Below are positions 3,792-61,615 of a DNA stretch of 64,000 nucleotides, one piece after another (within the stretch, counting starts at the first letter, position 1; each line of letters starts with the position of its first letter). This DNA comes from Eledone cirrhosa (taxonomy: Eukaryota): positions 18,166,001 to 18,230,000 of the forward strand of contig OZ024757.1 of assembly GCA_964016885.1 (NCBI GenBank), given 5' to 3'. The position numbers were made by a program, and so were the translations under genes. Below the pieces are notes generated by a model. The model saw only the letters and a list, made by a program, of their open reading frames with translations, searched no databases and was not told the DNA's origin.

Positions 3792-3940
3792 GTCGCAGAC
3801 TGCACCAGGTTGCGGCTGGAGAAAGTGTCGCGGCAAGTGGCATCCCAGACGAAGCGTTTGCCACCGCGGAACACGGGAAGATGGTCATACCGTCTGGCCT
3901 TTTGCCGTCTCTCGGTCCGGTCCCACCGGCTCGAACTGCA

Positions 3941-3986
<46 letters not shown>

Positions 3987-4190
3987 TGCAGGGTTCCCCT
4001 TCCAGTTCGAGCCGGTGGGACCGGACCGAGAGACGGCAAAAGGCCAGACGGTATGACCATCTTCCCGTGTTCCGCGGTGGCAAACGCTTCGTCTGGGATG
4101 CCACTTGCCGCGACACTTTCTCCAGCCGCAACCTGGTGCAGTCTGCGACTAACCCAGGTACTACTGCAAGTGGGGATGAGGAGGCCAAAC
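3792..4190. mobile_element. CRE-like RLE retrotransposon fragment present as an inverted duplication around a central (TA)n
   Basis: RDGKRPDGMTIFP/FRGGKRFVWDATCRDTFSSRNLVQSATNPGTTASGDEEAK is a restriction-like endonuclease motif; arms 3792-3943 and 3984-4149. Confidence 0.82.
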
Positions 4191-4504
4191 TCATTCATTC
4201 TCAGCCCCACACACATCGACACAGTCTCAACCTCCTCCATCAAATCCTATAACTCCTTCACTGTATTTGTCACCAAGACCTATGTCGTCGGCAAATTCAA
4301 CATTCTATATCTTTTTCGCCTTTACTCCCCTGCTCTGAGCCAGTGTTAAAATAAAGCCAGAGTCCTGGTGTTTTTCCAGCGCAAGGCGCATACAATAGTC
4401 CACTACGATGATAAAAAGTAGGGAGCCAATGCATCTCCGTGGAACACTCCAGCCAGTATCTCAAAGAACTCTGTCATCCCATCAGATGTTGGTGTAGAGC
4501 ACTG
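4190..4504 (-). mobile_element. RTE-group LINE reverse-transcriptase fragment (same family as 56.4-58.5 kb)
   Basis: Closely matches 58057-58182 and the reverse complement of 58280-58535 (GVLQGD, FADD regions). Confidence 0.88.
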
Positions 4505-7084: not shown

Positions 7085-7148
<64 letters not shown>

Positions 7149-7151
<3 letters not shown>

Positions 7152-7350
7152 CCAGTAAGACCCCGACGGCTGAGCTCAAGCCGTTTCGACGGCTAATTCT
7201 GGACTAAATTTAGTCCAGAATTAGCCGTCGAAACGGCTTGAGCTCGGCCGTCGGGGTCTTACTGGTTCCTATTACCCACTCTACTACCCTAAGTATTGAG
7301 TACTTTGGTGCGTTATGGTTTACCTGGTTCCTTACCACATTTTCTTCGTT
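7149..7350 (+). mobile_element. family-C fold-back element (120-bp palindrome 7149-7268 plus tail) in (TA)n
   Basis: Near-perfect palindrome; each arm has GAAA CGGCttgagctc(a/g)GCCG TC ggggt, the 3' half of an HHR. Confidence 0.88.
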
Positions 7351-7615: not shown

Positions 7616-7800
7616 GGCGGTGAATTGGCAGTATCGGTAGAGGGTCGGACATACTTTCCAGCATAGTTACGTCCCCTTACGATCTGAGTTCAAATCCCAC
7701 CGAGGTTAACTTTGCCTTTCATCCTTACAGGATCGATAAAATAAAGTACCAGTAATACACTGGCTAATTGCTGGCCTTGTGCCAAAAATAGAAACAATTA
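7616..7800 (+). mobile_element. tRNA-derived SINE, 18-bp TSD
   Basis: A-box-like tggcagtatcggtag, B-box gttcaaatccc; TSD acaattaattttctttag at 7599-7616 and 7794-7811. Confidence 0.92.
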
Positions 7801-7834
7801 ATTTTCTTTAGACATTGACCAAATATTATGTATG

Positions 7835-8021
7835 GGCGGTGGATTGGCAGTATCGGTAGAGGGTCGAACACCATGCTTTGATGCATAGCGTTGCGGCCCT
7901 TGCCATTCTGAGTTCTAATCCCGCCGAGGTTAACTTTTCCTTTCATCGTTACGGGTTCGATAAAATAAAGTACCAGTAATGCACTGGGTGGTTGCTGGCC
8001 TTGTGCCAAAAGTAGAAACAT
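7835..8021 (+). mobile_element. tRNA-derived SINE
   Basis: Full-length copy; short TSD ttatgtat. Confidence 0.9.
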
Positions 8022-8330
8022 TTATGTATATAACCGGTGCCCCAGCATGGCCTCAGCCGGATAGCTGAAACAGTTAAAAGAGTAACCAAAAAGCTACTTT
8101 ACCACAAATCCCACAAGTAAATGGGATGGGTTGGGGTTCTCAATACGTAAACTAAACGACTAATTATGGTTCTTTAAGAATATCAACGGAAACAAGATAG
8201 AAAGATTATTATTTGGGACCCAAGAGTATGAATGTATGTAAATATTTATGTCTATATATGTATATACATATGTCATTATGTACGTAATATGCGTGTATAT
8301 GTGTATATTTATACGTACGTAATATATTTC

Positions 8331-9616: not shown

Positions 9617-9653
9617 CATATGCACAGACCGTATATATTTACATGTGTGTGTG

Positions 9654-9859
9654 TTAACTCTTTAGCATTCACATTACTCTATATATACTATTATATTTTC
9701 ATGGTAAAGGCTTTATCTCACATAATATCGAATCTATGAGATTTTGAAAGATTTTTTTTTTTAGAATAATACCTTAACATCAGTATGAGTGGCCTGTTAC
9801 AGCCAGTTTCAACAGAAAGAGGTTTAGAATTCTGGCCGGTTTGAACATTAAAGGGTTAA
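9654..9859. mobile_element. piggyBac-type MITE with TTAA ends
   Basis: TTAA-ctctttagcattca ... tgaacattaaaggg-TTAA, imperfect TIRs. Confidence 0.65.
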
Positions 9860-9860
9860 G

Positions 9861-10024
9861 TATTTCCATAGAAAGTATAAAGGAAAGAAGAGTGCTCTAT
9901 GGAGAGTACAAAGCTATTTAATTACATAATAAACAACACAATATAGTTATTCCATTACCAAAGGTTTCAGGAGATTACGTTTCTGTAAGGACCTTCTAGT
10001 CTCCTGAAACCTTTGGTAATGAAT
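9861..10024. mobile_element. family-E fold-back element; inversion at HHR stem II
   Basis: Palindrome 9953-10021; homologous to the intact copy at 31680-31850. Confidence 0.78.
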
Positions 10025-10107
10025 TAATATATATATATATGTATGTATGTATGTAAGTATGAATATATATATATATATGTATGAATATATATATTTATAT
10101 GTGCATA

Positions 10108-10476: not shown

Positions 10477-10833
10477 ATATTAATAAAAGGAATTCCAACT
10501 TTGTCTGATTTACTCGTTTTATTTACAATCCTTTAAAATTTATAATGGTATTAGAATGAAATAGTATGGTAGAATATTAAATGTTAAGTGTTAATTGAAC
10601 AAGTACTTTCATGCTTTCGCAATCTTCAGGTTCACATTTTGTGGTGACAGCCAAGTTTGCAATTTTAAATTTTCAACAGTTGAAAATTGCAAACTTGACT
10701 GTCACTTAACATTTAATATTCTTTAACACTTAACATTTAACATTCTATCATACTATTTCATTCTAATACCATTATAAATTTTAAAGGATTGTAAATAAAA
10801 CGAGGAAATCAGACAAAGTTGGAATTCCTTTTA

Positions 10834-11653: not shown

Positions 11654-11694
<41 letters not shown>
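11165..11694. repeat. (TA)n / (TATATATAA)n tract
   Basis: Direct reading. Confidence 0.95.
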
Positions 11695-11696
<2 letters not shown>

Positions 11697-11862
11697 CGAA
11701 GGTGTGGAACCAGTTGGACCATAACGCACCAGAGTACTCAATACTTAGGGTAGTAGAGTAATAGGAAAATGTTTAACCCCGACGGCAGAGCTCAAGCCGT
11801 TTCGACTGTCCACAAATAGCCATTGAAACGGCTTGAGCTCGGCCGTCGGGGTTAAACACTTT
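11695..11862 (-). mobile_element. family-C fold-back element
   Basis: Tail plus palindromic accccgacggc..gccgtcggggt. Confidence 0.87.
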
Positions 11863-11942
11863 AACTATATATATATATATATGTATATATATTCAAATAT
11901 ATTTATATACATATATATATATACATGTATATACACGTTATA

Positions 11943-12071: not shown

Positions 12072-12192
12072 ATATGAAAAGCTTCAGGACCCTTAGGTCC
12101 TGAAGCTTTTCATATTACCCACTCTACTACCCCAAGTATCGAGTACTCTGATAGGTGATGGTCCACCTCGTATTTTACCACACCCTTTCTGA
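12072..12192 (+). mobile_element. family-C-related element with a short terminal palindrome
   Basis: atatgaaaagcttcaggacc-ctta-ggtcctgaagcttttcatat followed by the ttacccactctactacc tail. Confidence 0.72.
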
Positions 12193-15134: not shown

Positions 15135-15143
<9 letters not shown>

Positions 15144-15377
15144 AGAACAAAAGATGGTTAAAGGAGTTCCATGTATTTTATTATGCGCATTTCAAAAACA
15201 AATATCATCATGAGATGACATTTGCGCTTTCGTCAGATAAAATAGGGAGACATGACATGAAGATCAAAAAACACTTGTGAATAGTGCAGTTGATATGTTG
15301 ATTTAAAACTGCACCATTCACAAGTGCCCCTCCGATATCTGCATTGCTTTATTGTACTACAATAAAACTCACCTCCT

Positions 15378-15381
<4 letters not shown>
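15135..15381. mobile_element. family-F fold-back element with collapsed right arm
   Basis: Same left end and same tail (aaaactcacctcctaca) as 19938-20212 and 40038-40476. Confidence 0.85.
15174..15244 (-). ncRNA. type-I hammerhead ribozyme (family F)
   Basis: tattttat CTGACGA aagcgcaaatgtcatc tcat gatgatatttgttttt GAAA tgcgca TA ataaaata. Confidence 0.85.
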
Positions 15382-15594: not shown

Positions 15595-15960
15595 GTAATC
15601 TTAGTTTTTCGAATATTAAGAACAACATTCGATTTGTTTGCAATTATGCAAACAAGCCTCAACGTTATAGCCATGTCAATAGAACTGTGTATTTTTGAAA
15701 ATAGCATATATTTTCACTAGCTCTGACAGTTTGGCAGGTTAACAGTTTAGCTGTACTGATGAAGGGTGATACCCAAAAACATTAGTGTCTGCAGTTCTGT
15801 TCGCATGTCAACACAAGAGCAAGAATGAAGGGTTCAATCTACTGACATGGCTATAAAATTGAGGCTTGTTTGCAAAATTGCAAACAAATCGAATGTTGTT
15901 ATTAACATTCGAAAAACTCAGATTACATTTACTGTATTCAGCCATGTAGAGCGAAATTTT

Positions 15961-16023: not shown

Positions 16024-16265
16024 GGTTATGCACGAGTGCATTAATGTTTTCCAGGACACAGTGTTATGTACCGTGTAGGGGAAGGTCAGCTTACAACAGA
16101 GTGGTGCTCAACGAAATGCAGAAAAAAGGTGTATATTCCAGTTTAGCTATATTCCGGGGTGTGTATAAAGAATTAAAAAGAACAGAAAGATGCAGTAAAA
16201 GAGATTTATTCGGTTCTAACGTACGTTTCAATAGACATCAATTTGCCTAGAACTCGCTACATCTA

Positions 16266-16451
16266 TAATTGTTTCTACTTTAGGCACAAGGCCAGCAATT
16301 ACCCAGTGCATTACTGGTACTTTATTTTATCGACCCCGTAAGGATGAAAGGCAAAGTCAACCTCGGCGGGATTTGAACTCAGATCGTAAAGGGACGTAAC
16401 TATGCTGGAAAGCATGGCGTCCGACCCTCTACCGATACTGCCAATCCACCG
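16266..16451 (-). mobile_element. tRNA-derived SINE (young)
   Basis: Near-consensus full-length copy. Confidence 0.92.
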
Positions 16452-17963: not shown

Positions 17964-18343
17964 GGCGGTGGATTGGCAGTATCGGTAGAGGGGCGGACGC
18001 CATCTTTTGCAGCACAGTTACGTCCCTTTACGGACTGAGTTCAAATCCCGCCGAGGTTAACTTTGCCTTTCATCCTTACGGGGTCGATAAAATAAAGTAC
18101 CAGTAATACACTGAAATAATTGCTGGCTTTGTGCCAAAAGGTAGAAACAATTATCTGGGTGGATTGGCGGTCTCGGTAGAGGGTCGGACGCCATACTTTG
18201 ACGCATAGAGTTACGGCCCTTGTCATTCTGATTTCAAATCCCGCTGAGGTTAACTTTGCCTTTCATCCTTACGGCGCCGATAAAGTAAAGTACCAGTAAT
18301 GTACTCAGATAATTGCTGGCCTTGTGCCAAAAGTAGAAACCAT
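17964..18343 (+). mobile_element. tandem pair of SINEs sharing a triplicated target attatctg
   Basis: attatctg at 17956-17963, 18150-18157 and 18342-18349. Confidence 0.9.
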
Positions 18344-18478
18344 TATCTGCTTATACCTGCGAGAAACACCCCAGTATGACTGACACTTTTACCAGACGCA
18401 ACATGCCTTTAAATGGGACCCGTCTAACCCATGCTAGCATGGAAGATAGACGTTAATCGATGGTGACGATGATGATGA

Positions 18479-18512
<34 letters not shown>

Positions 18513-18620
18513 AACCCACCCCCACTCTCAAGCGTGAAACTAATACTAATATCGTTTGTACTGCCTCTGTTTTTTGTTCTCTGTTTATTTATTTTTTAAA
18601 AAAAAAATATATATATATAT

Positions 18621-18807
18621 AACGAAGGAAATGTTGGTAAGCAACCAGATGGACCATAACGCACCAGAGTACTCAATACTTAGGGTAGTAGAGTGGATAA
18701 TAGGAAAATGTTTAACCCCAACGGCAGAGCTCAAGCCGTTTCGACGGCTATTTCAGTCCAGAAATAGTCGTCGAAACGTCTTGAGCTCTGCCGTCGGGGT
18801 TAAACAT
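18621..18807 (-). mobile_element. family-C fold-back element
   Basis: Tail plus palindrome centred near 18755. Confidence 0.88.
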
Positions 18808-18817
18808 GTTCATGTTC

Positions 18818-18875
<58 letters not shown>

Positions 18876-18877
<2 letters not shown>

Positions 18878-19107
18878 AGTAACTATGTTTTGAAACAGTG
18901 AGCAGGTTTGAAATTAGATAATAGAATAGCTTTCACCGTATTTTTGACTAAAGAAATTTTAGCCTGATAATGGGTCTTAGAACCCTCAGATAAATGGAAA
19001 AAGATGAGTATTGACGTACATGTACGTCAATACTCATCTTTTTCCATTTATCTGAGGGTTCTAGACCCCATTATTAGGCTAAAATTTCTTTAGTCAAAAA
19101 TACGGTG

Positions 19108-19110
<3 letters not shown>
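18876..19110. mobile_element. fold-back insert in (TA)n, 180-bp loopless palindrome 18931-19110
   Basis: Centre ttgacgtaca|tgtacgtcaa at 19020/19021; extra tail on the left. Confidence 0.85.
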
Positions 19111-19452: not shown

Positions 19453-19891
19453 AGAAGGGTTAAAATACTGGAGCGTGTTGGAGTTAAACACCCTCTTCGT
19501 ATTATAGAAATGACAGTAAAAGGTATAGCTCAATGTAGTTAAACAGAGCCGAAGAATTAAGAAAGTAAAACAAAGAAGCCTTCAATACATCAAAAGTCTT
19601 TATTATATATTTTAATTTTTTGCTTTGGACTATATTTGTAATATGGTTCTTAATGTTATACACCTCCTTAGTAATTTTTATTATATATTTTTATTATTTT
19701 TATTATATATTTTTACCCATAATCTTGCAATACTTTAGTGTATGTACACTCCATATTCTTCGGAGTTTCCGGCTTGTATCGGCCGATAATACTTCTGTTG
19801 TTTTAATTGCCCTGATGAGTCCTTAATAGGACGAAACATTGTCGGCTAATAAAGACTTTTGATGTATTGAAGGCTTCTTTGTTTTACTTTC

Positions 19892-19896
<5 letters not shown>
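19453..19896. mobile_element. HHR element with perfect 50-bp inverted arms (19556-19605 and 19847-19896)
   Basis: Direct reading; TA flanks. Confidence 0.82.
19809..19846 (+). ncRNA. type-I hammerhead ribozyme, canonical core
   Basis: gcc CTGATGA gtcct taat aggac GAAA cattg TC ggc. Confidence 0.88.
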
Positions 19897-19941
<45 letters not shown>

Positions 19942-19969
19942 ATCAAAAGATGGTTAAAAGAGTTCCAAG

Positions 19970-20040
19970 TATTTTATTAGGCGCATTTCAAAAACAAATA
20001 TCATCATGGGATGATATCTGCGTTCTCATCAGATAAAATA
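19970..20040 (-). ncRNA. type-I hammerhead ribozyme (family F, element 19938-20212)
   Basis: tattttat CTGATGA gaacgcagatatcatc..gatgatatttgttttt GAAA tgcgcc TA ataaaata. Confidence 0.8.
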
Positions 20041-20208
20041 TGGAGTCATGATATGAAGCTTAAAAAACACTTGTGAATAGTGAAGTTTTAAATCAACATA
20101 TGAAAAACAAATTAAGATTGATGTACGAGATTGGGAAAAAGTAACTGTTGAGTGCTACTTATCCGATATTTGCATTGCTTTATTGTTGCTACAATAAAAC
20201 TCACCTCC

Positions 20209-20290
<82 letters not shown>

Positions 20291-20303
20291 TATATATATA
20301 TAT

Positions 20304-20663
20304 AAAACCAAAGATTAATATGGTTCGTTGATTATTCAACGAATACAATTTTACAATAGATTAGGAGCACTCGACAGTTGATTTTCCTGGAGTATTTAAT
20401 ATTATTTACAATGTTAATAAATGAAAATTATTCTCATAACCAAAATATATATTTTATTATACATATTTCATCAGACAAAATATAAGATTTGAAATGTGAC
20501 ATACTGGAATTGAATAATCATTTCCATAGCGGTATGGCACATATCAAATCTTATATTTTGTCTGATGAAAACGCACTTAAACACCACTGTACCTTTGAAA
20601 TATGTATAGCAAAATATATATTTTGATTATGAGAATATTTTTCATTTATTAACATTTTGAATA

Positions 20664-20746: not shown

Positions 20747-20775
<29 letters not shown>

Positions 20776-20779
<4 letters not shown>

Positions 20780-20969
20780 AAAATGTATGACCCCGACGGC
20801 AGAGCTCAAGCCGTTTCGACGGCTATTTCTGGACCAGAAATAGCCGTCGAAACGGCTTGAGCTCTGCCGTTGGGGTCATACATTTTCCTATTACCCACTC
20901 TACTACCCTAAGTATTGAGTACTCTGGTGCGTTATGGTCCACCTGGTTCCTTAACCTAACTCCTTCGTT
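20776..20969 (+). mobile_element. family-C fold-back element
   Basis: Palindrome centred near 20833 plus tail. Confidence 0.9.
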
Positions 20970-21108
20970 ATATATATATATATATAATAGGATATGTGTT
21001 CCTACACGCACAAAGCGCTAAGGGACACATGTATTGTCCAACTATATGCCAATGTGGTTTAATGGCAGGTTAATAAATTAACGAGCCATAACATATATAC
21101 TAAACCTG

Positions 21109-21914: not shown

Positions 21915-22176
21915 ATAGTTATGTAATAAACAACATAAGGCAATTATTCCATTTACCAGTGGTTTCTTAAAAGCAAAAAAATTTTTTGCTTTCAATCATC
22001 AGAATGAAAAAAAAAAAAAAAAATCTGATGAATGAAAGCAAAATTTTTTTGCTTTTAAGAAACCACTGGTAAATGGAATAATTGCCTCATGTTGTTTATT
22101 ACATAACTATTAAGCTCTGTTACCTACATAGAGCAATCTTTTTTCCTGGACTTTTCCGACGAAATTACTTCATTCA

Positions 22177-22690: not shown

Positions 22691-23195
22691 AAATAAAATA
22701 TATACATATATACATATATAGGCATACGAAGTTAGTCGAAGTGAATCGACTCCGTCTCGGTAATTTTCCCACTCACTCAATGATATAATTAGATTTGTAT
22801 TATTAATAATACAAACCCATTAACCAGAGTGTAGACATTCGTGAATCAGTAAGATAAACGACGTGTGCCTTCGATAATAACATGAAAATCCCGGACCAAG
22901 ATATATTTTCTGCAATTCCGATCTGTAAATAACAGACCGACTGGAAGCGCAGTTCACAGAAATTAGGTAATGTCAGGAGACATTACGCTATTTAGCTGGA
23001 GATTGCTTCATCAGCCGTATGTAACTTGCCAGGAATGAAATGGTCCGTTTCGCTTACCCAGCCCGTATAGAGATGGTGGTGGTCATCAGCGAGTGTAGTA
23101 GTAAAACAAGACTTTTAGTGACACGTGACTTCATATCAAAGAGGAGGTAAGCCGAACCTTACAAGTTTTAGGGAACACGATTATATATATATATA

Positions 23196-23398
23196 TAGGA
23201 ACGAGTAGGACTCCGACGGCTGAGCTCAAGCCGTTTCGACGGCTAATTCTGGACAGAATTGCGTCCAGAATTAGCCGTCGAAACGGCTTGAGCTCAGCCG
23301 TCGGGGTCCTACTCGTTCCTATTACCCACTCTACTACCCTAAGTATTGAGTACTTTGGTGCGTTGTGGTCCACCTGCTTCCTTACCACATTTCCTCCG

Positions 23399-23400
<2 letters not shown>
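23196..23400 (+). mobile_element. family-C fold-back element
   Basis: Palindrome about 23196-23321 plus tail. Confidence 0.9.
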
Positions 23401-23485: not shown

Positions 23486-23548
23486 AAGACCCCGACGGCT
23501 GAGCTCCAGTCGTTTCGATCTAGCTGTCGAAACGGCCGTAGCTCAGCC
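23486..23548. mobile_element. family-C fold-back remnant
   Basis: aagaccccgacggctgagctc..tttcga..gtcgaaacggc. Confidence 0.72.
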
Positions 23549-30652: not shown

Positions 30653-31275
30653 TTGCGAGATTTTTTATATGAAATCGTGTGTCGAAACAAATACTGTTAT
30701 ACTTGGGGAGGGTCATATTGTTGTAATAATATTGCCAGAAATAACAACACAACACACTCACTGTATGGTTGGTTTTCGCTTCTGTATCTTTTATATCTCC
30801 ACAGTTAATTCATTTGTCCTCAATGTTTATCATTGACTGACCAACGGTCAAAAATACAGATATAATATCGATATAAACACATATATATATAGTCTAACAA
30901 AGTTCTTTCGTTGCACATCTGCAACATCATCAGTGGTACTATTATGTTCCTCCTGCTGTATTGTATGTCTACGCCAGATGATAAACATTGAGGACCAAAT
31001 CAATTAACAGAAGCGAAAACCAACCAAACGGTGAGTGTGTTCTGTTATTATTTCTGGCAGTATCGGTAGAGGGTCGGACGCCATGCTTTCCAGCATAGTT
31101 ACGTCCCTTTACGATCTGGGTTCAAATCCCGCCGAGGTTGACTTTGCCTTTCATCCTTACGGGGTCGATAAAATAAAGTACCAGTAATGCACTGGTTCAT
31201 TGCTGGCCTTGTGTCTAAAGTAGAAACAATTATTTCTGGCAATATTATTACAATAATATGACCCTCCTCAAGTAT

Positions 31276-31616: not shown

Positions 31617-31692
31617 TTAATCTGTTATTTTAATAAATATATATATATATATATATATATTGGTCTTGATAATTATTACTATATTTATATAC

Positions 31693-31764
31693 ATTTTATC
31701 TGATGAGAGTACTGGACGTTTCTGTTAAGATCGCCTAGTTTACTGAAACCTTGCGTAATGGAAT
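31693..31764 (+). ncRNA. type-I hammerhead ribozyme (family E, element about 31660-31850)
   Basis: attttat CTGATGA gagtactgg..ctagtttact GAAA ccttgcg TA atggaat. Confidence 0.72.
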
Positions 31765-32012
31765 AATTATATTCTGTTGTTTATTATATAATTAAATAGC
31801 TCTTTACTGTACATAAAGCACTCTTCTTTCCTTTACCTTTTTCGGAAATACATACATATATCCCTACTCACAAGCGTTAAACTAATATTAACATTTCGAC
31901 TGCCTCTTCAACAACGTTGTTTTTTTTTTGTTTTCTGTGTACTGTCTCAACTCTAAAATATATATATAATAATATAATAATAATAATAATAATATAATAA
32001 TAATAATAATAA

Positions 32013-33094: not shown

Positions 33095-33180
33095 GGTGAC
33101 GCACGTTTCGCCTCCGATCAGCTCAAGGTTCGAACTGTATCGATCTAGCCCGACTCTGTAACCCGCGGTTCATCAGATCC
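33095..33180 (-). ncRNA. degenerate HHR-like motif
   Basis: CTGATGA ..long.. GAAA cgtgcg TC; stems I and II pair poorly. Confidence 0.4.
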
Positions 33181-33203
33181 TTTATATATATATAGCTTTT
33201 ATA

Positions 33204-33248
33204 GCTCTGAAGAATCCTACGGTTACGTAAGGAAGAAACATTGTAAGC
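33204..33248 (+). ncRNA. type-I hammerhead ribozyme (related to the 19809 copy)
   Basis: gct CTGAAGA atcctac ggttac gtaaggaa GAAA cattg TA agc; downstream aataaa..cttttgatgt shared with the 19.85-kb copy. Confidence 0.72.
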
Positions 33249-40037: not shown

Positions 40038-40472
40038 ATAATATAAGATCAAAAGATGGTTAAAGGAGTTCAATATATTTTATTATGCGCATTTCAAAAA
40101 CAAACATCATCAAACAATAATATTTGTGTTTTCATCAGATAAAACAGGAGAACATGATATGAAGGCTAAAAAAACACTTGTTGATAGTGCAGTTTTAAAT
40201 CAACAGTTTTAAATCAACATATGTTGATTTAAAACTGCACTATCAACAAGTGTTTTTTTAGCCTTCATATCATGTTCTCCTGTTTTATCTGATGAAAACA
40301 CAAATATTATTGTTTGATGATGATTGTTTTTGAAATGCGCATAATAAAATATATTGAACTCCTTTAACCATCTTTTGATCTTATATTATGCATACTCCAG
40401 TCCCACAAACTGTAGAGTGCTTCTTATCCGATATCTGCATTGCTTTATTGTACTACAATAAAACTCACCTCC

Positions 40473-44523: not shown

Positions 44524-44709
44524 GTGGATTGGCACTATCGGTAGAGGGTCGGACGCCATGCTTTGACGCATAGAGTTACGGCCCTTGCCATTCTGAGTTC
44601 AAATCCCGCCGAGGTTAACTTTGCCTTTCATCCTTATGGGGTCGATAAAATAAAGTACCAGTAATACACTGGGTAATTGCTGGCCTTGTGCCAAAAGTAG
44701 AAACAATTA
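44524..44709 (+). mobile_element. tRNA-derived SINE, 20-bp TSD
   Basis: attatagtttcgtctgcttg at 44500-44519 and 44706-44725. Confidence 0.93.
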
Positions 44710-44938
44710 TAGTTTCGTCTGCTTGCATGCAATTGTCCCTTTCGTTTTTTTCTCCCACATGTATATATCCCACGTGCTCTTTTTTATATTATCAAGCCAA
44801 ATTATATATATATAAACATAGCGTTATGTCGTATATCCAATGTCTTACATATTTTATCTGATGAGTTGGCTTGAGTCGTTAGAACGTCGGACAAAATAAT
44901 TTGCAGCATATACTCAGATATTTAAGTTCTCAGTAACA

Positions 44939-45124
44939 TAATTGTTTCTACTTTAGGCACAAGGCCAGCAATTACCCAGTGCATTACTGGTACTTTATTT
45001 TATCGACCCCGTTAAGGATGAAAGGCAAAGTCAACCTCGGCGGGATTTGAACTCAGATCGTAAAGGGACGTAACTATGCTGGAAAGCATGGCGTCCGACC
45101 CTCTACCGATACTGCCAATCCACC
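44939..45124 (-). mobile_element. tRNA-derived SINE with about 20-bp TSD
   Basis: agttctcagtaa(c/a)ataattg on both sides. Confidence 0.92.
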
Positions 45125-49246: not shown

Positions 49247-49321
49247 CATTTGTATTATATTCATACATTTAAAAAAACTGATGCAAAGATACATTATGCA
49301 TATATATATATATATATATAT

Positions 49322-49416
49322 AACAAAGGAATTGTAGTAAGGAACCAGGTGGACAATAACGCACCAGAAATAGCCGTCGGAACGGCTTGAGCTCTGCAGT
49401 CGGGGTCATACTTTTT

Positions 49417-49419
<3 letters not shown>
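49322..49419. mobile_element. family-C fold-back with one arm deleted
   Basis: Tail (..aacgcaccaga) fused to the centre (accagaaatagccgtc) at shared accaga. Confidence 0.82.
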
Positions 49420-49505
<86 letters not shown>

Positions 49506-50446: not shown

Positions 50447-51038
50447 GTCACAAGGCCAGCAATTTAGGGGGCAGGTAAAGTCGATTAAATCGACCCCAGC
50501 GCCTGCCTGGTACTTTATTTTATCGACCCCTTTAAGGATGAAAGGCAAAGTTAACCTCGGCGGGATTTGAACTCAGATCATAGAGGGACGTAACTCTATG
50601 CTTGCAAAAAGATATACACGCTCACACACACATAACATATATACTTACAAACACACAAACACACATATATACTCATATATCCCAGTGCATTACTGGTACT
50701 TTATTTTATCGACCCCGTAAGGATGAAAGGCAAAGTCAACCTCGGCGGGATTTGAACTCAGATCGTAAAGGGACGTAACTATGCTGGAAAGCATGGCGTC
50801 CGACCCTTTACCGATACTGCCAATCCACCGCCCTTGTGTATATTTTAAATAATTGTTTCTACTTTAGGCACAAGGCCAGCAAAATACTCAGTGCATTACT
50901 GGTACTTTATTTTATCGACCCCGTCAGAATGAAAGACAAAGTCAACCTCGGCGGGATTTGAACTCAGACCGTAAAGGGACGTAACTATGCTGCAAAGCAT
51001 GGCGTCCGACCCTCTACCGATACTGCCAATCCACCGCC
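50447..51038 (-). mobile_element. cluster of three SINEs (about 50447-50600, 50661-50832, 50850-51038)
   Basis: Consensus matches; cccttgtgtatatttt duplicated around the third copy. Confidence 0.9.
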
Positions 51039-51786
51039 CTTGTGTATATTTTTAAAAATATGTGTATATATAGGTTTCTCTAAACTACCACAGCATCATG
51101 TTATATTTATTCATTTAATTACTGTTACTATCGTTAGTAGTATTATTATTATCATCATTAGTAGGGCTGTTATATTTCTCTCTTAAGTCTACTAATACCT
51201 CTGTTAAATGGGAAAAACGACACCAGCTTGGTAAACACGAAGCATTTGCTGGTATGGTGTGTGTGTGTGTGTATATATATATACATACATACATGCGTAA
51301 ATGCACAACAAACGCGCACACACACACATATATATATATACATATATATACACCTATTCCCCCCCCCCCCACACACACACACACGATATATATATATATA
51401 TATATATAATGAAGGCAGGTTGTGTACGGGTCTGCCGTTCTCAAGCCTCTCTCTACTTCCATTTCAACCCTGCCAATTCCATTTAGACCATTAGCTGCTC
51501 GGCTAAATCATTTTACAAGACACATAAAAGCCCACGCATACAACACGCACACGCACACGCACACGCACACACACACACACATTCATACCCTCGCAAACAC
51601 ATACATACACAAAGTACCGTTCACACAGTTTCTCACACATATAAATGCAAACTTTCTAACATACACACACAAAACATTCTAACATACACACAGATAAACA
51701 GGCAAATCAGCACACACACCAACACACGCATTCATTTATATATATATATATGTATATGTTTGTGCGTGTTTGGGGGGGGGGGGTAC

Positions 51787-56450: not shown

Positions 56451-56926
56451 TTTCAGGTCTCTACGAAGGTCCGACTTCCACACCGATCTCAAGCTCTTCA
56501 TTGCTGTAGTGGAGTCTGTGCTGCTGTATGGGTCTGAGACTTGGACACTGACCAAGAGACTCACTCAGATGGTGGATGAGTGCTACACGAGAATGCTGAG
56601 GATGGCTCTGAACATTAATCAGTATACACTGAGAATGAAAAACTCAGAGCTGTATGGGAGCATCCCAAAAGTGAGCTCAAAAGTGACACAGAGGAGACTG
56701 AGGTTGGCTGGACATGGTCACCGACATCCAGAGTTGACATTGCACTCAGTGCTCCTTTGGGAGCCCCTACATGGACACACTAGAAGAGGAAGACCAAGGT
56801 TAACATATGTTGATGCCCTGAGGACAGACACTGGACTGTTGGAGATGCAGGATATGGCAGCGATAATGAGGGACAGAGACCGCTGGAGAGAACTCGTCCA
56901 TGGATCTCGGGAATTTTACCCGCCTT

Positions 56927-56928
<2 letters not shown>
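56451..56928 (+). mobile_element. 5'-truncated RTE-group LINE in (TA)n with a 45-nt 5' inversion
   Basis: VESVLLYGSETWTLTK..LRLAGH..LLWEPLHG..RGRPRLTYVD..DRDRWR; 56451-56495 is the inverted upstream segment. Confidence 0.92.
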
Positions 56929-56976
<48 letters not shown>

Positions 56977-57138
56977 AGTATATGTTTCCAGTTTTGAGTA
57001 TATGATTCCAGTGAAAGAACAGTGAAAGTATATGATTCCAGTGAAAGAACAACCCAACCAGGAACTGGGAATATCAGAGTATTGACAAAGTTAAACACCT
57101 CAACAACATGTGTACTCGTCTCTACCACACTAATTCGG

Positions 57139-57193
57139 ACTGCCTGAAGAGGTCACAGCCAAAGATGGCTGTCACCGAAATATATATAGCAGT
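57139..57193 (+). ncRNA. type-I hammerhead ribozyme (family G)
   Basis: actgc CTGAAGA ggtcacagcca aaga tggctgtcacc GAAA tatata TA gcagt. Confidence 0.9.
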
Positions 57194-57382
57194 AATAAAC
57201 GAAGCCAAATTTTAAACATTTGACTTATTTATTTTATTTTATTTTATATATATATATAGATACAAATAAAGATTCAGCGAGAATCGCATTTCGGCGGGCA
57301 GGAAAAGCGAGGCGAAACGCAAAAATCAGAAATGATACTGGCAAAGTGCTCAATAGTTAAAAACCAGAGCTAAACAATGTGT

Positions 57383-58545
57383 TAAGAAGCCATTTTTTTT
57401 TTTTAAGGCGGGTAAAATTCCCGAGATCAATGGACGAGTTCTCTCCAGCGGTCTCTGTCCCTCATTATCGCTGCCATGTCCTGCGTCTCCAACAGACCAG
57501 TGTCTGTCCTTAGGGCATCAACATACGTTAACCTTGGTCTTCCTCTTCTATTGTGTCCATGTAGGGGCTCCCAAAGGAGCACTGAGTGCAATGTCAACTC
57601 TGGATGTCGGTGAGCATGTCCAGCCAGCCTCAGTCTCCTCTGTGTCACTTTTGAGCTGACTTTTGGGATGCTCCCATACAGCTCTGAGTTTTTCATCCTC
57701 AGTCTATACTAATTAATGTTCAGAGCCATCCTCAGCATTCTCGTGTAGCACCCATCCACCACATGAGTGAGTTTCTTGGTCAGTGTCCAAGTCTCAGAGC
57801 CATACAGCAGCACAGACTCCACTACAGCAATGAAGAGGCGGATTTTCAGGTCTCTACGAAGGTTCGACATCCACACCGATCTCAAGCTGTGGCACGCCGC
57901 CCAGGCCTTGCTCTTCCTCTCAACCACATCATCTTCCGTATTCCCAATCTTTGCTCCCAAATACAGGAAGCTCTCAACCAATTCTAGCGGCTTCCAGCCT
58001 ACATTAGTGATCCCCTCTGGCTTCTCAACATTCTCTACCAGATATTTTGGTTTAGTCTCATTCATTCTCAGCCCCACACTCATCGACACAGTCTCAACCT
58101 CCCGCATCAAATCCTCTGCCTCCTTCACTGTATTTGTCACCAAAACTATGTCGTCGGCAAATTCAGCATCCGATACCTTTTGACTTTAGGAAGGCCTTTG
58201 ATTCTGTGAACCGTTACTGCCTGATGAAGATCTTACAGGCTTATGGAATCCCCAAGAGGATAGTTGACCTGATATCACTGCTCTACACCAACACCAAACC
58301 CCAAGTCATTACACCTGATGGGATGACAGAGTTCTTTGAGATACTAGCTGGAGTGCTCCAGGGAGATACATTGGCTCCCTACCTTTTTATCATCGTAGTG
58401 GACTATTGTATGCGCCTTGCACTGGAGAAACACCAGGACTCTGGCTTTACTGTAGTACCGGCTCAGAGCAGGAGAGTTAGGGCGAAAAAGGTATCGGATG
58501 CTGAATTTGCCGACGACATAGTTTTGGTGACAAATAAGAAGCCAT
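57383..58545 (-). mobile_element. RTE-group LINE with poly(A), 5' inversion (about 58180-58536) and 11-bp TSD
   Basis: TSD taagaagccat at 57383-57393 and 58535-58545; RT motifs FDFRKAFDSV, GVLQGDTLAPYLF, EFADD in the inverted part; FLYLG and YGSETW in the body. Confidence 0.95.
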
Positions 58546-58596
58546 ACAAAACTGAAAAGGTGGTCAAGAGGGCATTAACCACCCAAGCCAAAAAAC

Positions 58597-58837
58597 CAAA
58601 GGTGACAAATATTAACAAAATAGATATTCTTGTGATCAATTATGTTTTATTATACATATTTCAGAGGTACTGAATTAAGTTCAGCAGTACGTCCTCATCA
58701 GATAAAATAAAATGATACATTTGTTAATATTTGGAATTAATATTAATAACTCCGGAAAATATTTTTTTCTTGTAGAGTGCTTCCAATCTATTGTAAAACT
58801 CATTATTTGATGTATTCATCGAATCTTGTTTAACTCT

Positions 58838-61024: not shown

Positions 61025-61220
61025 AACGAAGGAAATGTGGTAAGGAATCAGGTGGACCATAACGCACCAAAGTACTCAATACTTAGGGTAGTAGAGTGGG
61101 TAATAGGAACAAGTAAGACCCCGACGGCTGAGCTCAAGCCGTTTCGAAGGCTAATTCTGTACTGATAATAGAGTACAGATTTAGCCGTCGAAACGGCTTG
61201 AGCTCTGCCGTCGGGGTCAT
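61025..61220 (-). mobile_element. family-C fold-back element
   Basis: Tail plus palindrome centred near 61166. Confidence 0.9.
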
Positions 61221-61615
61221 ATATATATATATATATATAAGTATGTATACGTACATATATGTATATATAATCGAATGCGTTGGTGTTTTAAGTGAATTTG
61301 TCTGTAATCTATATAGTAGTGTGTTATGACTGTTAGATGTTTGCGTGTTAAAGAAATGTGGTCACCATTTTATAAGATTGTCTCTTTATACTTGTTTGTA
61401 AACACGTCTCTGTACCGTCTTTATATGTCACTATATGTATGTGTGTATGCAAGCAACCGTATGTATGCATGTGCATGTATGTGTGTATGTAAGTGTCCGC
61501 ATGTGTGTAAGTGTGCGTATGTATGTGTGTGTGTAAGACAATTATGCTCTTGCTTAATGTTTTCTACTTAGAACTAATTTATATTAATGCTTCCTTCTGC
61601 ATTTATATATATATA

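Follow-up and report, generated by a model that had tools for sequence, protein, structure and literature searches.

Organization of the fold-back copy at 9861-10024

Within the 64,000-nt stretch of the Eledone cirrhosa genome analysed in this study (contig OZ024757.1, positions 18,166,001 to 18,230,000, hereafter the window, to which all coordinates refer), the segment 9861-10024 is a head-to-head pair of two 5′-truncated pieces of one hammerhead-bearing repeat, set in opposite orientation. The repeat belongs to the family called E in the initial annotation, while the letters A to D used for other families are labels of this analysis. The long arm (9861-9974, minus strand) carries the 3′ strand of stem II, the GAAA box, stem III, the predicted cut site and a tail of about 97 nt, and spans stem II to +97 as counted from the predicted cut site. 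The short arm (10000-10021, plus strand) carries the 3′ strand of stem II, GAAA, stem III, the predicted cut site and 3 nt, and spans -42 to somewhere between +3 and +15; past 10021 the sequence weakly resembles the tail or (TA)n as far as about 10033. Between the arms lies a spacer of 25 nt (9975-9999), which represents loop II plus the inner part of stem II and reads in the same sense as the short arm.

Positions 9953-9974 pair perfectly with 10000-10021 (22/22 complementary), giving an inverted repeat of 22 bp for which the chance expectation is 3.6e-6 in 64 kb with a spacer of up to 100 nt. The initial annotation had read the loop at 9953-10021 as preceded by tttc, the inverted GAAA arm, in place of CTGATGA, and this reading holds. 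The copy is without CTGATGA and would be dead as a ribozyme. The inversion junction was likewise correctly placed at stem II: it lies in 9969-9977, at the position of the stem II 5′ strand, where 6 perfect pairs and 3 more with one G-T wobble can be formed with 9997-10005. From the wobble, at 9975/9999, native stem II sequence would seem to extend to this point or further. True microhomology may make up anywhere from 0 to 9 of these 9 nt.

When the spacer was compared with the loop of the intact family E copy (31716-31738), 18 of 23 positions were identical in the plus sense (score 26, shuffle p 5e-5), while no match was obtained in the antisense direction (score 8, p 0.96). The spacer is therefore contiguous with the short (plus) arm, confirming the earlier proposal that the loop belongs to the short arm and the long tail to the other.

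On the left, the 3′ end of the long arm is abutted by a high-copy repeat (9654-9860) that is TTAA-bounded, has inverted ends and is presumably MITE-like. This neighbour is very high in copy number, is common to public runs of at least 3 species labels, and holds most of the records from public runs placed on 9640-10040. Neither a target-site duplication nor an empty site is readable at 9953, because the flanks are either microsatellite or the later TTAA-bounded insertion.

Independent reads and contigs

The locus itself is known from the assembly alone, and independent reads give copies of the family: across 9640-10040, no read or contig from any of the four public runs spans the locus, and no empty-site allele was among the 15 of 71 joints listed. 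Family contigs and reads from the public runs cover 9976-10031, mostly with G at 10022, the letter of the family tail (151 of 158 first-mate-plus reads in X16; 7 contigs in X1 and 10 in X2). Since these reads continue past the spacer with the family's letter, other copies have no break between spacer and tail. A rare C at 10001 is mirrored at 9973. A fall of read depth over loop II was set aside as evidence, for it is explained equally well by divergence of the loop.

A short perfect inverted repeat with no independent contig or read across it is also what a chimera of library construction or assembly would look like. Such an origin is nevertheless highly improbable, because at many like loci the arms have diverged from each other (for instance by CpG-type changes at 11767, 18711 and 20786), the end sites of short arms are shared between copies, and the layout matches the published one.

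Relatives of the copy in family E

The intact copy of family E (31693-31854, plus strand) consists of a minimal type I hammerhead motif with its tail, preceded by 39 nt of upstream sequence and then (TA)n. The boxes are CTGATGA at 31700-31706 and GAAA at 31745-31748, and cleavage is predicted after TA at 31756-31757. All that the initial annotation had stated about the sequence of the intact copy at 31693-31764 proved accurate; its start at 31693 takes in the 5′ strand of stem I. The third copy (21915-22165) is again head to head and holds a whole hammerhead core in each arm. The three copies, which had been proposed to be related, are homologous: the long arm at 9953 (9857-9974, minus strand) is identical to 31739-31854 at 100 of 116 positions (86%; blastn E 1.7e-29), and the long arm of the third copy is identical to the intact copy at 105 of 137.

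In the third copy the stem I 5′ strand, upstream of CTGATGA, holds the junction, and the short arm ends at +41 in (TA)n, so that one of the two head-to-head copies of family E (9953, not 21915) is joined in stem II. The third copy also shows an A16 run at its inversion junction (within 21938-22087); it retains core and tail, whereas its stem II bears no sequence relation to the stem II of the two remaining E copies.

Hammerhead motifs and probable relationship to Penelope-like elements

A scan for CTGANGA followed by GAAA gave 29 matches in the 64-kb window, in many cases with a short stem III and TA or TC coming next. Core boxes and stems I-III are present at 31693-31765 and at 21940-22085. 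In the 31700 copy CUGANGA, GAAA and UH are present and helix II folds; helix I was read by eye and is absent from the minimum-energy fold (z 0.53). The arm at 22002 folds helices I-III. The G10.1-C11.1 pair, highly conserved though not universal, is absent from both, being replaced by A-U at 31700 and U-A at 22002. The window is AT-rich and microsatellite-rich DNA of animal type, with about 21 kb masked as simple repeats. Rfam gave no match at gathering score across the window and no hammerhead among 4 weak chance matches at 31660-31800; by E-value, microsatellite look-alikes of miRNAs were among the matches listed (150 of 770).

The layout of Penelope-like elements (PLEs), in which an inverted 5′-truncated copy stands head to head with its partner and one of the arms bears a tail, is found in two of the three family E copies and at 20 loci of the window, and the arms end in (TA)n, in line with the AT-rich or (TA)n targets of EN+ PLEs. 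A Pfam scan of 140 of 168 complex frames plus 9 read-through frames gave no ORF for a Penelope RT or GIY-YIG domain in the window; the only RT matches in the 140 frames were to RVT_1, in a LINE-type fragment at 57712-58670. PLE stumps need not contain an ORF. We conclude that the repeat is likely a pseudo-LTR (pLTR) stump of a Penelope-like retroelement, membership being likely rather than established because the defining RT/GIY-YIG ORF was not found. Assignment to the tandem non-LTR retrozymes, which are defined by tandem head-to-tail units with a type I hammerhead in each (10.64898/2026.07.22.740005, as far as accessible), was rejected, family E copies being dispersed, single or head to head, with no tandem units.

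Fragments of LINE-type RT were detected at 56494-58670 and 3792-4489 (matches to RVT_1 and DUF6451 at 57712-58670), and these include inverted duplications (56494-57837, 58131-58536 and 3792-4149), indicating that inverted arrangements are not confined to hammerhead-bearing repeats. Two different hammerhead-like motifs stand back to back on opposite strands at 33106-33238, about 30 nt apart, the minus-strand motif having a branched stem II of about 60 nt. A SINE-like repeat of 180-190 nt is present in more than 15 copies, several as tandem or inverted pairs (including 7616-8025, 16265-16451, 17964-18346, 31055-31235, 44524-45123 and 50681-51040); the copy at 31055 lies inside the 30704 element, in its short arm, and likely has a target duplication.

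Census of head-to-head loci in the window

Counting by hand, we identified 20 head-to-head loci of hammerhead-bearing families in the window: seven of family A (7156, 11767, 18711, 20786, 23198, 61126 and 49364), two of family B (20410 and 58701), two of family C (9138 and 41077), three of family D (15236, 20032 and 40038), two of family E (9953 and 21915), and four without a family letter (10491, 15603, 19566 and 30704). Four further places (1258, 12107, 18939 and 23488), with no core or too decayed, and the inverted LINE-like and SINE-like pairs were left out. At 1258-1618 and 18931-19110 there are long near-perfect palindromes in (TA)n with arms lacking the hammerhead core, probably the same layout in other families; 12072-12182 and 23488-23530 are related to family A, the former having a hairpin near the cut-site position (12072-12115) and the latter, next to the 23198 copy, being an older fold-back.

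At 7 of the 20 loci, namely six family A copies and 9953, stem II or loop II is where both arms end; at 49364 this is true of the short arm alone. Outside family A, a stem II join is seen at 1 of 13 loci, the 21915 copy of family E joining instead in the stem I 5′ strand. Stem II as the breakpoint, as proposed initially, thus stands for 9953, and a general rule that stem II is the junction is rejected. Family A is a much stronger hot spot than family E. We infer the 5′ half of the family A stem II, because the window holds no intact A copy.

Family A, in which stem III bears a GAGCTC palindrome, is head to head in all seven copies (7140-7350, 11690-11875, 18620-18820, 20765-20970, 23185-23400, 49310-49430 and 61025-61225); none keeps CTGANGA, every junction is different, and all seven short arms terminate within loop II or stem II. 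At 18711-18804 and 20786-20880 the cut site is TT in the long arm and TC in the short arm, for which a CpG transition is the simple reading. At four of six family A loci the arms are nearest to their own partner (mismatches 1/56, 1/57, 1/60 and 3/37), while at 18711 and 61126 they are as near or nearer to another copy; near-identical arms within a locus would fit one RNA or one source gene. Exact-pattern searches gave no match to family A in metagenome, viral or genome contigs, and none to family E in metagenome contigs. In family B, the long arm at 20466-20480 is without any stem II, lost between two TGAAA direct repeats, possibly by RT skipping over a hairpin.

The orientation of the spacer was scored at all loci where it can be read. 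It goes with the short arm at 9953, 21915, 11767, 18711, 20786 and 19566, and the same follows for 23198 and 41077 from inferred pairing. The long arm carries it at 15603, at 30704 and perhaps at 10491. Five loci are symmetric or unreadable (7156, 9138, 20410, 40038 and 61126), and 58701 is unassigned. The resulting ratio, 8 against 3, has a two-sided p of 0.23, and with two firm counter-examples (15603 and 30704) the notion that the loop always follows the short arm was discarded. Since the short arm starts further 5′, it would more often carry the spacer, and no special rule is needed.

The long arm at 9953 ends at the common 3′ end of its family, which lies +92 to +97 from the predicted cut site. 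The difference between the two arms amounts to about 50-90 nt for families A, D and E; it is 35 nt at 15603 and about 45 nt at 30704. The centres at 7156, 20786 and 40038 have a loop of 0-1 nt, while 15603, 19566 and 30704 have spacers of about 150-240 nt, located on either arm, that no stem closes.

Loci with non-overlapping arms

At three loci the two arms share no part of the repeat, leaving gaps of 33 nt (49364), 21 nt (20032) and 40 nt (15236). The family A locus (49320-49421) has a long arm from +54 to +100 (minus strand) and a short arm from -38 to +20 (plus strand), joined via the 5 shared nt CCAGA at 49364-49368, a microhomology with a chance of about 0.006 for one junction. The first family D locus (19935-20214) has a short arm from -126 to +43 and a long arm from +65 to +135; the second (15139-15380) has a short arm from -111 to +43 and a long arm from +84 to +133, with a small extra inverted piece at the junction. 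As the arms do not overlap, the short arm at these three loci cannot be a copy of the long arm: the pattern there fits an inverted piece primed internally and independently of the first cDNA, which at 9953 is not separable from copying.

Short-arm ends recur at shared TA-rich sites: +43 to +46 for all three family D copies and +20 for three of the seven family A copies, with about +6 to +16 for the other family A short arms. The loop-less palindromic centre at 40038 coincides with CATATG, a motif that 20032 carries as native sense sequence. The long arm at 19566 halts at the predicted cut site and the short arm crosses the core and continues about 200 nt further; the long-arm stop in this element (19556-19896) may reflect run-off from a cleaved RNA.

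Origin of the inverted arrangement

The initial annotation had favoured two cDNAs joined through stem II complementarity over simple snap-back copying. Plain snap-back is indeed excluded at 9953, for it would leave the loop antisense with the long arm and the opposite is observed. A snap-back that is nicked or trimmed and an intermolecular template switch yield the same product, so that 9953 alone cannot prove two cDNAs; the two-cDNA conclusion is still the best, resting on the non-overlapping loci 49364, 20032 and 15236. The recurrent end sites of short arms, the stemless spacers on either arm, the loop-less CATATG centre at 40038 and the likeness of arms within most family A loci also fit two primers acting on one RNA or one source gene. 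The in vitro activity of the Penelope/Poseidon protein (PMC11167929) and the inversion classes of L1 (PMC12350158) speak for it as well.

Taking together the observed architecture, homology, orientation and class of non-overlapping arms, we infer an enzyme, two nicks, stalling at the ribozyme and annealing, and consider the most likely origin, on the whole a probable one, to be twin priming: a Penelope-like RT/endonuclease would act in trans, and at 9953 stem II would serve as the microhomology. An RT/GIY-YIG protein, supplied in trans, would nick both strands of a TA-rich target; one 3′ end would prime at the usual site and the other at an internal TA-rich site just beyond the ribozyme. Synthesis of both antisense cDNAs would halt within the ribozyme or close to it, the one cDNA stopping in the 3′ strand of stem II and the other in the 5′ strand, and the complementary cDNA ends would anneal and be filled in. 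The join would be made at any short complementarity at hand, stem II being one of several; further junction microhomologies observed are the native CATATG palindrome and the 5-nt chance match. Against twin priming at 9953, the full 22-bp overlap and identity of the arms and the mirrored C at 10001/9973 also fit copying of one arm from the other, and the short arm ends near stem I, where a replication template switch would return. Further points against it are the 3 differences in the distal 12 nt of the short arm, the unreadable target-site duplication, the negative search for a Penelope RT or GIY-YIG domain in the frames scanned, the absence of an intact family A copy from the window, and the published reading of junction palindromes as self-priming (Arkhipova et al. 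2013, PMC3846280).

In the nicked form of snap-back, one cDNA would fold back on stem II and self-prime its second strand, the first strand would be nicked or trimmed, and the opened arm would join (TA)n. This too leaves the loop with the short arm and makes the arms identical over 22 bp, stem II supplying 6-9 bp for self-priming; self-priming is moreover the published reading of pLTR junction palindromes (PMC3846280, in its accessible part), and self-annealed 3′ ends are described to yield inverted duplications at L1 sites (10.1101/2024.12.14.628481, accessible part). It cannot, however, make the non-overlapping arms of the three loci, and fits poorly with the loops of 0-1 nt (7156, 20786 and 40038) or the stemless spacers of 150-240 nt; we regard it as unlikely.

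Alternatively, an intact copy may have been inserted first and altered later by an intermolecular template switch of a polymerase at the stem II quasi-palindrome, with return at stem I or (TA)n, by which the loop would be inverted and CTGATGA replaced by the mirrored GAAA side. A type I hammerhead provides two inverted repeats, one nested in the other, the end of the short arm at 9953 is a few nt from stem I, and a template switch can invert a spacer and perfect an arm in a single event (PMC8604942, accessible part). In the same direction, the distal 12 nt of the short arm have 3 differences from the tail as opposed to 0 of 22 within the arm (Fisher p 0.037). Yet 20 loci in 64 kb and all seven family A copies make a frequency too high for a rare replication error, and the short arms end at sites common to a family. 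In addition, the inverted spacers in the yeast data were changed at 2-5 bp (PMC8604942, accessible part), and the distal 15 nt after the short arm score lower, if not decisively so, with the reversed upstream sequence (8 and 4) than with the copy's own tail (12) or (TA)n (14). We therefore hold a template switch to be quite unlikely.

A more specific version of twin priming would make stem II the annealing adaptor: RT would stall at the folded ribozyme on both twin-primed cDNAs, and the complementary stem strands would splice them. We put this forward only tentatively and regard it as rather unlikely.

Comparison with known systems

The layout described here is already known for such elements; 9953 adds one family example and a modest mechanistic lead, and is not a new system. 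According to the accessible parts of the respective papers, insertions of EN+ PLEs carry an inverted 5′-truncated copy and, on one side, a tail of 30-40 bp (Craig et al. 2021, PMC8557442), and inverted junctions in Adineta, with a 15-bp overlap and palindromes of 18 and 38 bp, were read as self-priming (Arkhipova et al. 2013, PMC3846280). The loci in the window agree with EN+ PLE insertions in the head-to-head inverted truncated copy, the 3′ extension of one arm, the palindrome or overlap at the junction and the TA-rich targets. They differ in that pLTR-sized stumps stand alone here, with no ORF, and in an arm difference of about 50-90 nt (families A, D and E) against the published 30-40 nt. 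The junction was here mapped to hammerhead stem II, and our data favour two primers as against the published self-priming (PMC3846280, accessible part).

Minimal hammerheads of metazoan PLEs are described, in the accessible part of Cervera and de la Pena 2014 (PMC4209133), to include opposite-strand pairs 100-700 bp apart. The motifs in the window resemble them in the CUGAUGA and GAAA boxes, a long helix II, the extra nucleotide before stem II, a very short helix III, and the occurrence as single dispersed motifs and opposite-strand pairs. They differ in that the first stem II pair at 31700 is A-U and not G-C and that loop III is merely near-palindromic; junctions inside the ribozyme are not discussed in the accessible part of that paper. 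The Penelope/Poseidon protein of Anolis cleaves and extends both target strands and uses two internal RNA start sites in vitro (Frangieh et al. 2024, PMC11167929, accessible part). Shared with Poseidon are the AT-rich cut sites, a tail that two internal starts would explain, and uncleaved RNA as the template. In contrast, the Poseidon data are in vitro and, as far as the paper is accessible, leave the joining of two cDNAs unresolved, and the starts found here end in TA microhomology with the target.

Among retrotransposons with inverted insertions, L1 shares an internal second primer with the scheme proposed here. Twin priming of L1, with a 5′ inversion from such a primer, was reportedly described by Ostertag and Kazazian in 2001. 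L1 inserts of this kind carry deletions or duplications at the inversion point (PMC12350158, accessible part); the likeness thus extends to the deletion and duplication classes and to microhomology at the join. Unlike L1 inserts, the loci in the window have no poly(A) end and no readable TSD, their internal start sites recur, and duplications are common, up to the whole short arm. The accessible part of PMC13282606 holds nothing further on junctions. No statement placing inverted junctions at hammerhead stem II was found among the openly accessible main texts covered by our literature search.

For the origin of inverted PLE copies, self-priming was proposed in 2013, and priming on both strands was demonstrated in vitro in 2024. 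The tiny insertions of the window offer a cheap genomic test of this origin, in which non-overlapping arms argue for two primers, and maps of their junctions reveal whether the ribozyme fold sets the points at which the cDNAs stop and are joined. If the adaptor reading of stem II is true, the ribozyme fold would act in the closing of the insertion, apart from any self-cleavage, and this would explain the long-noted palindromes at inverted pLTR junctions.
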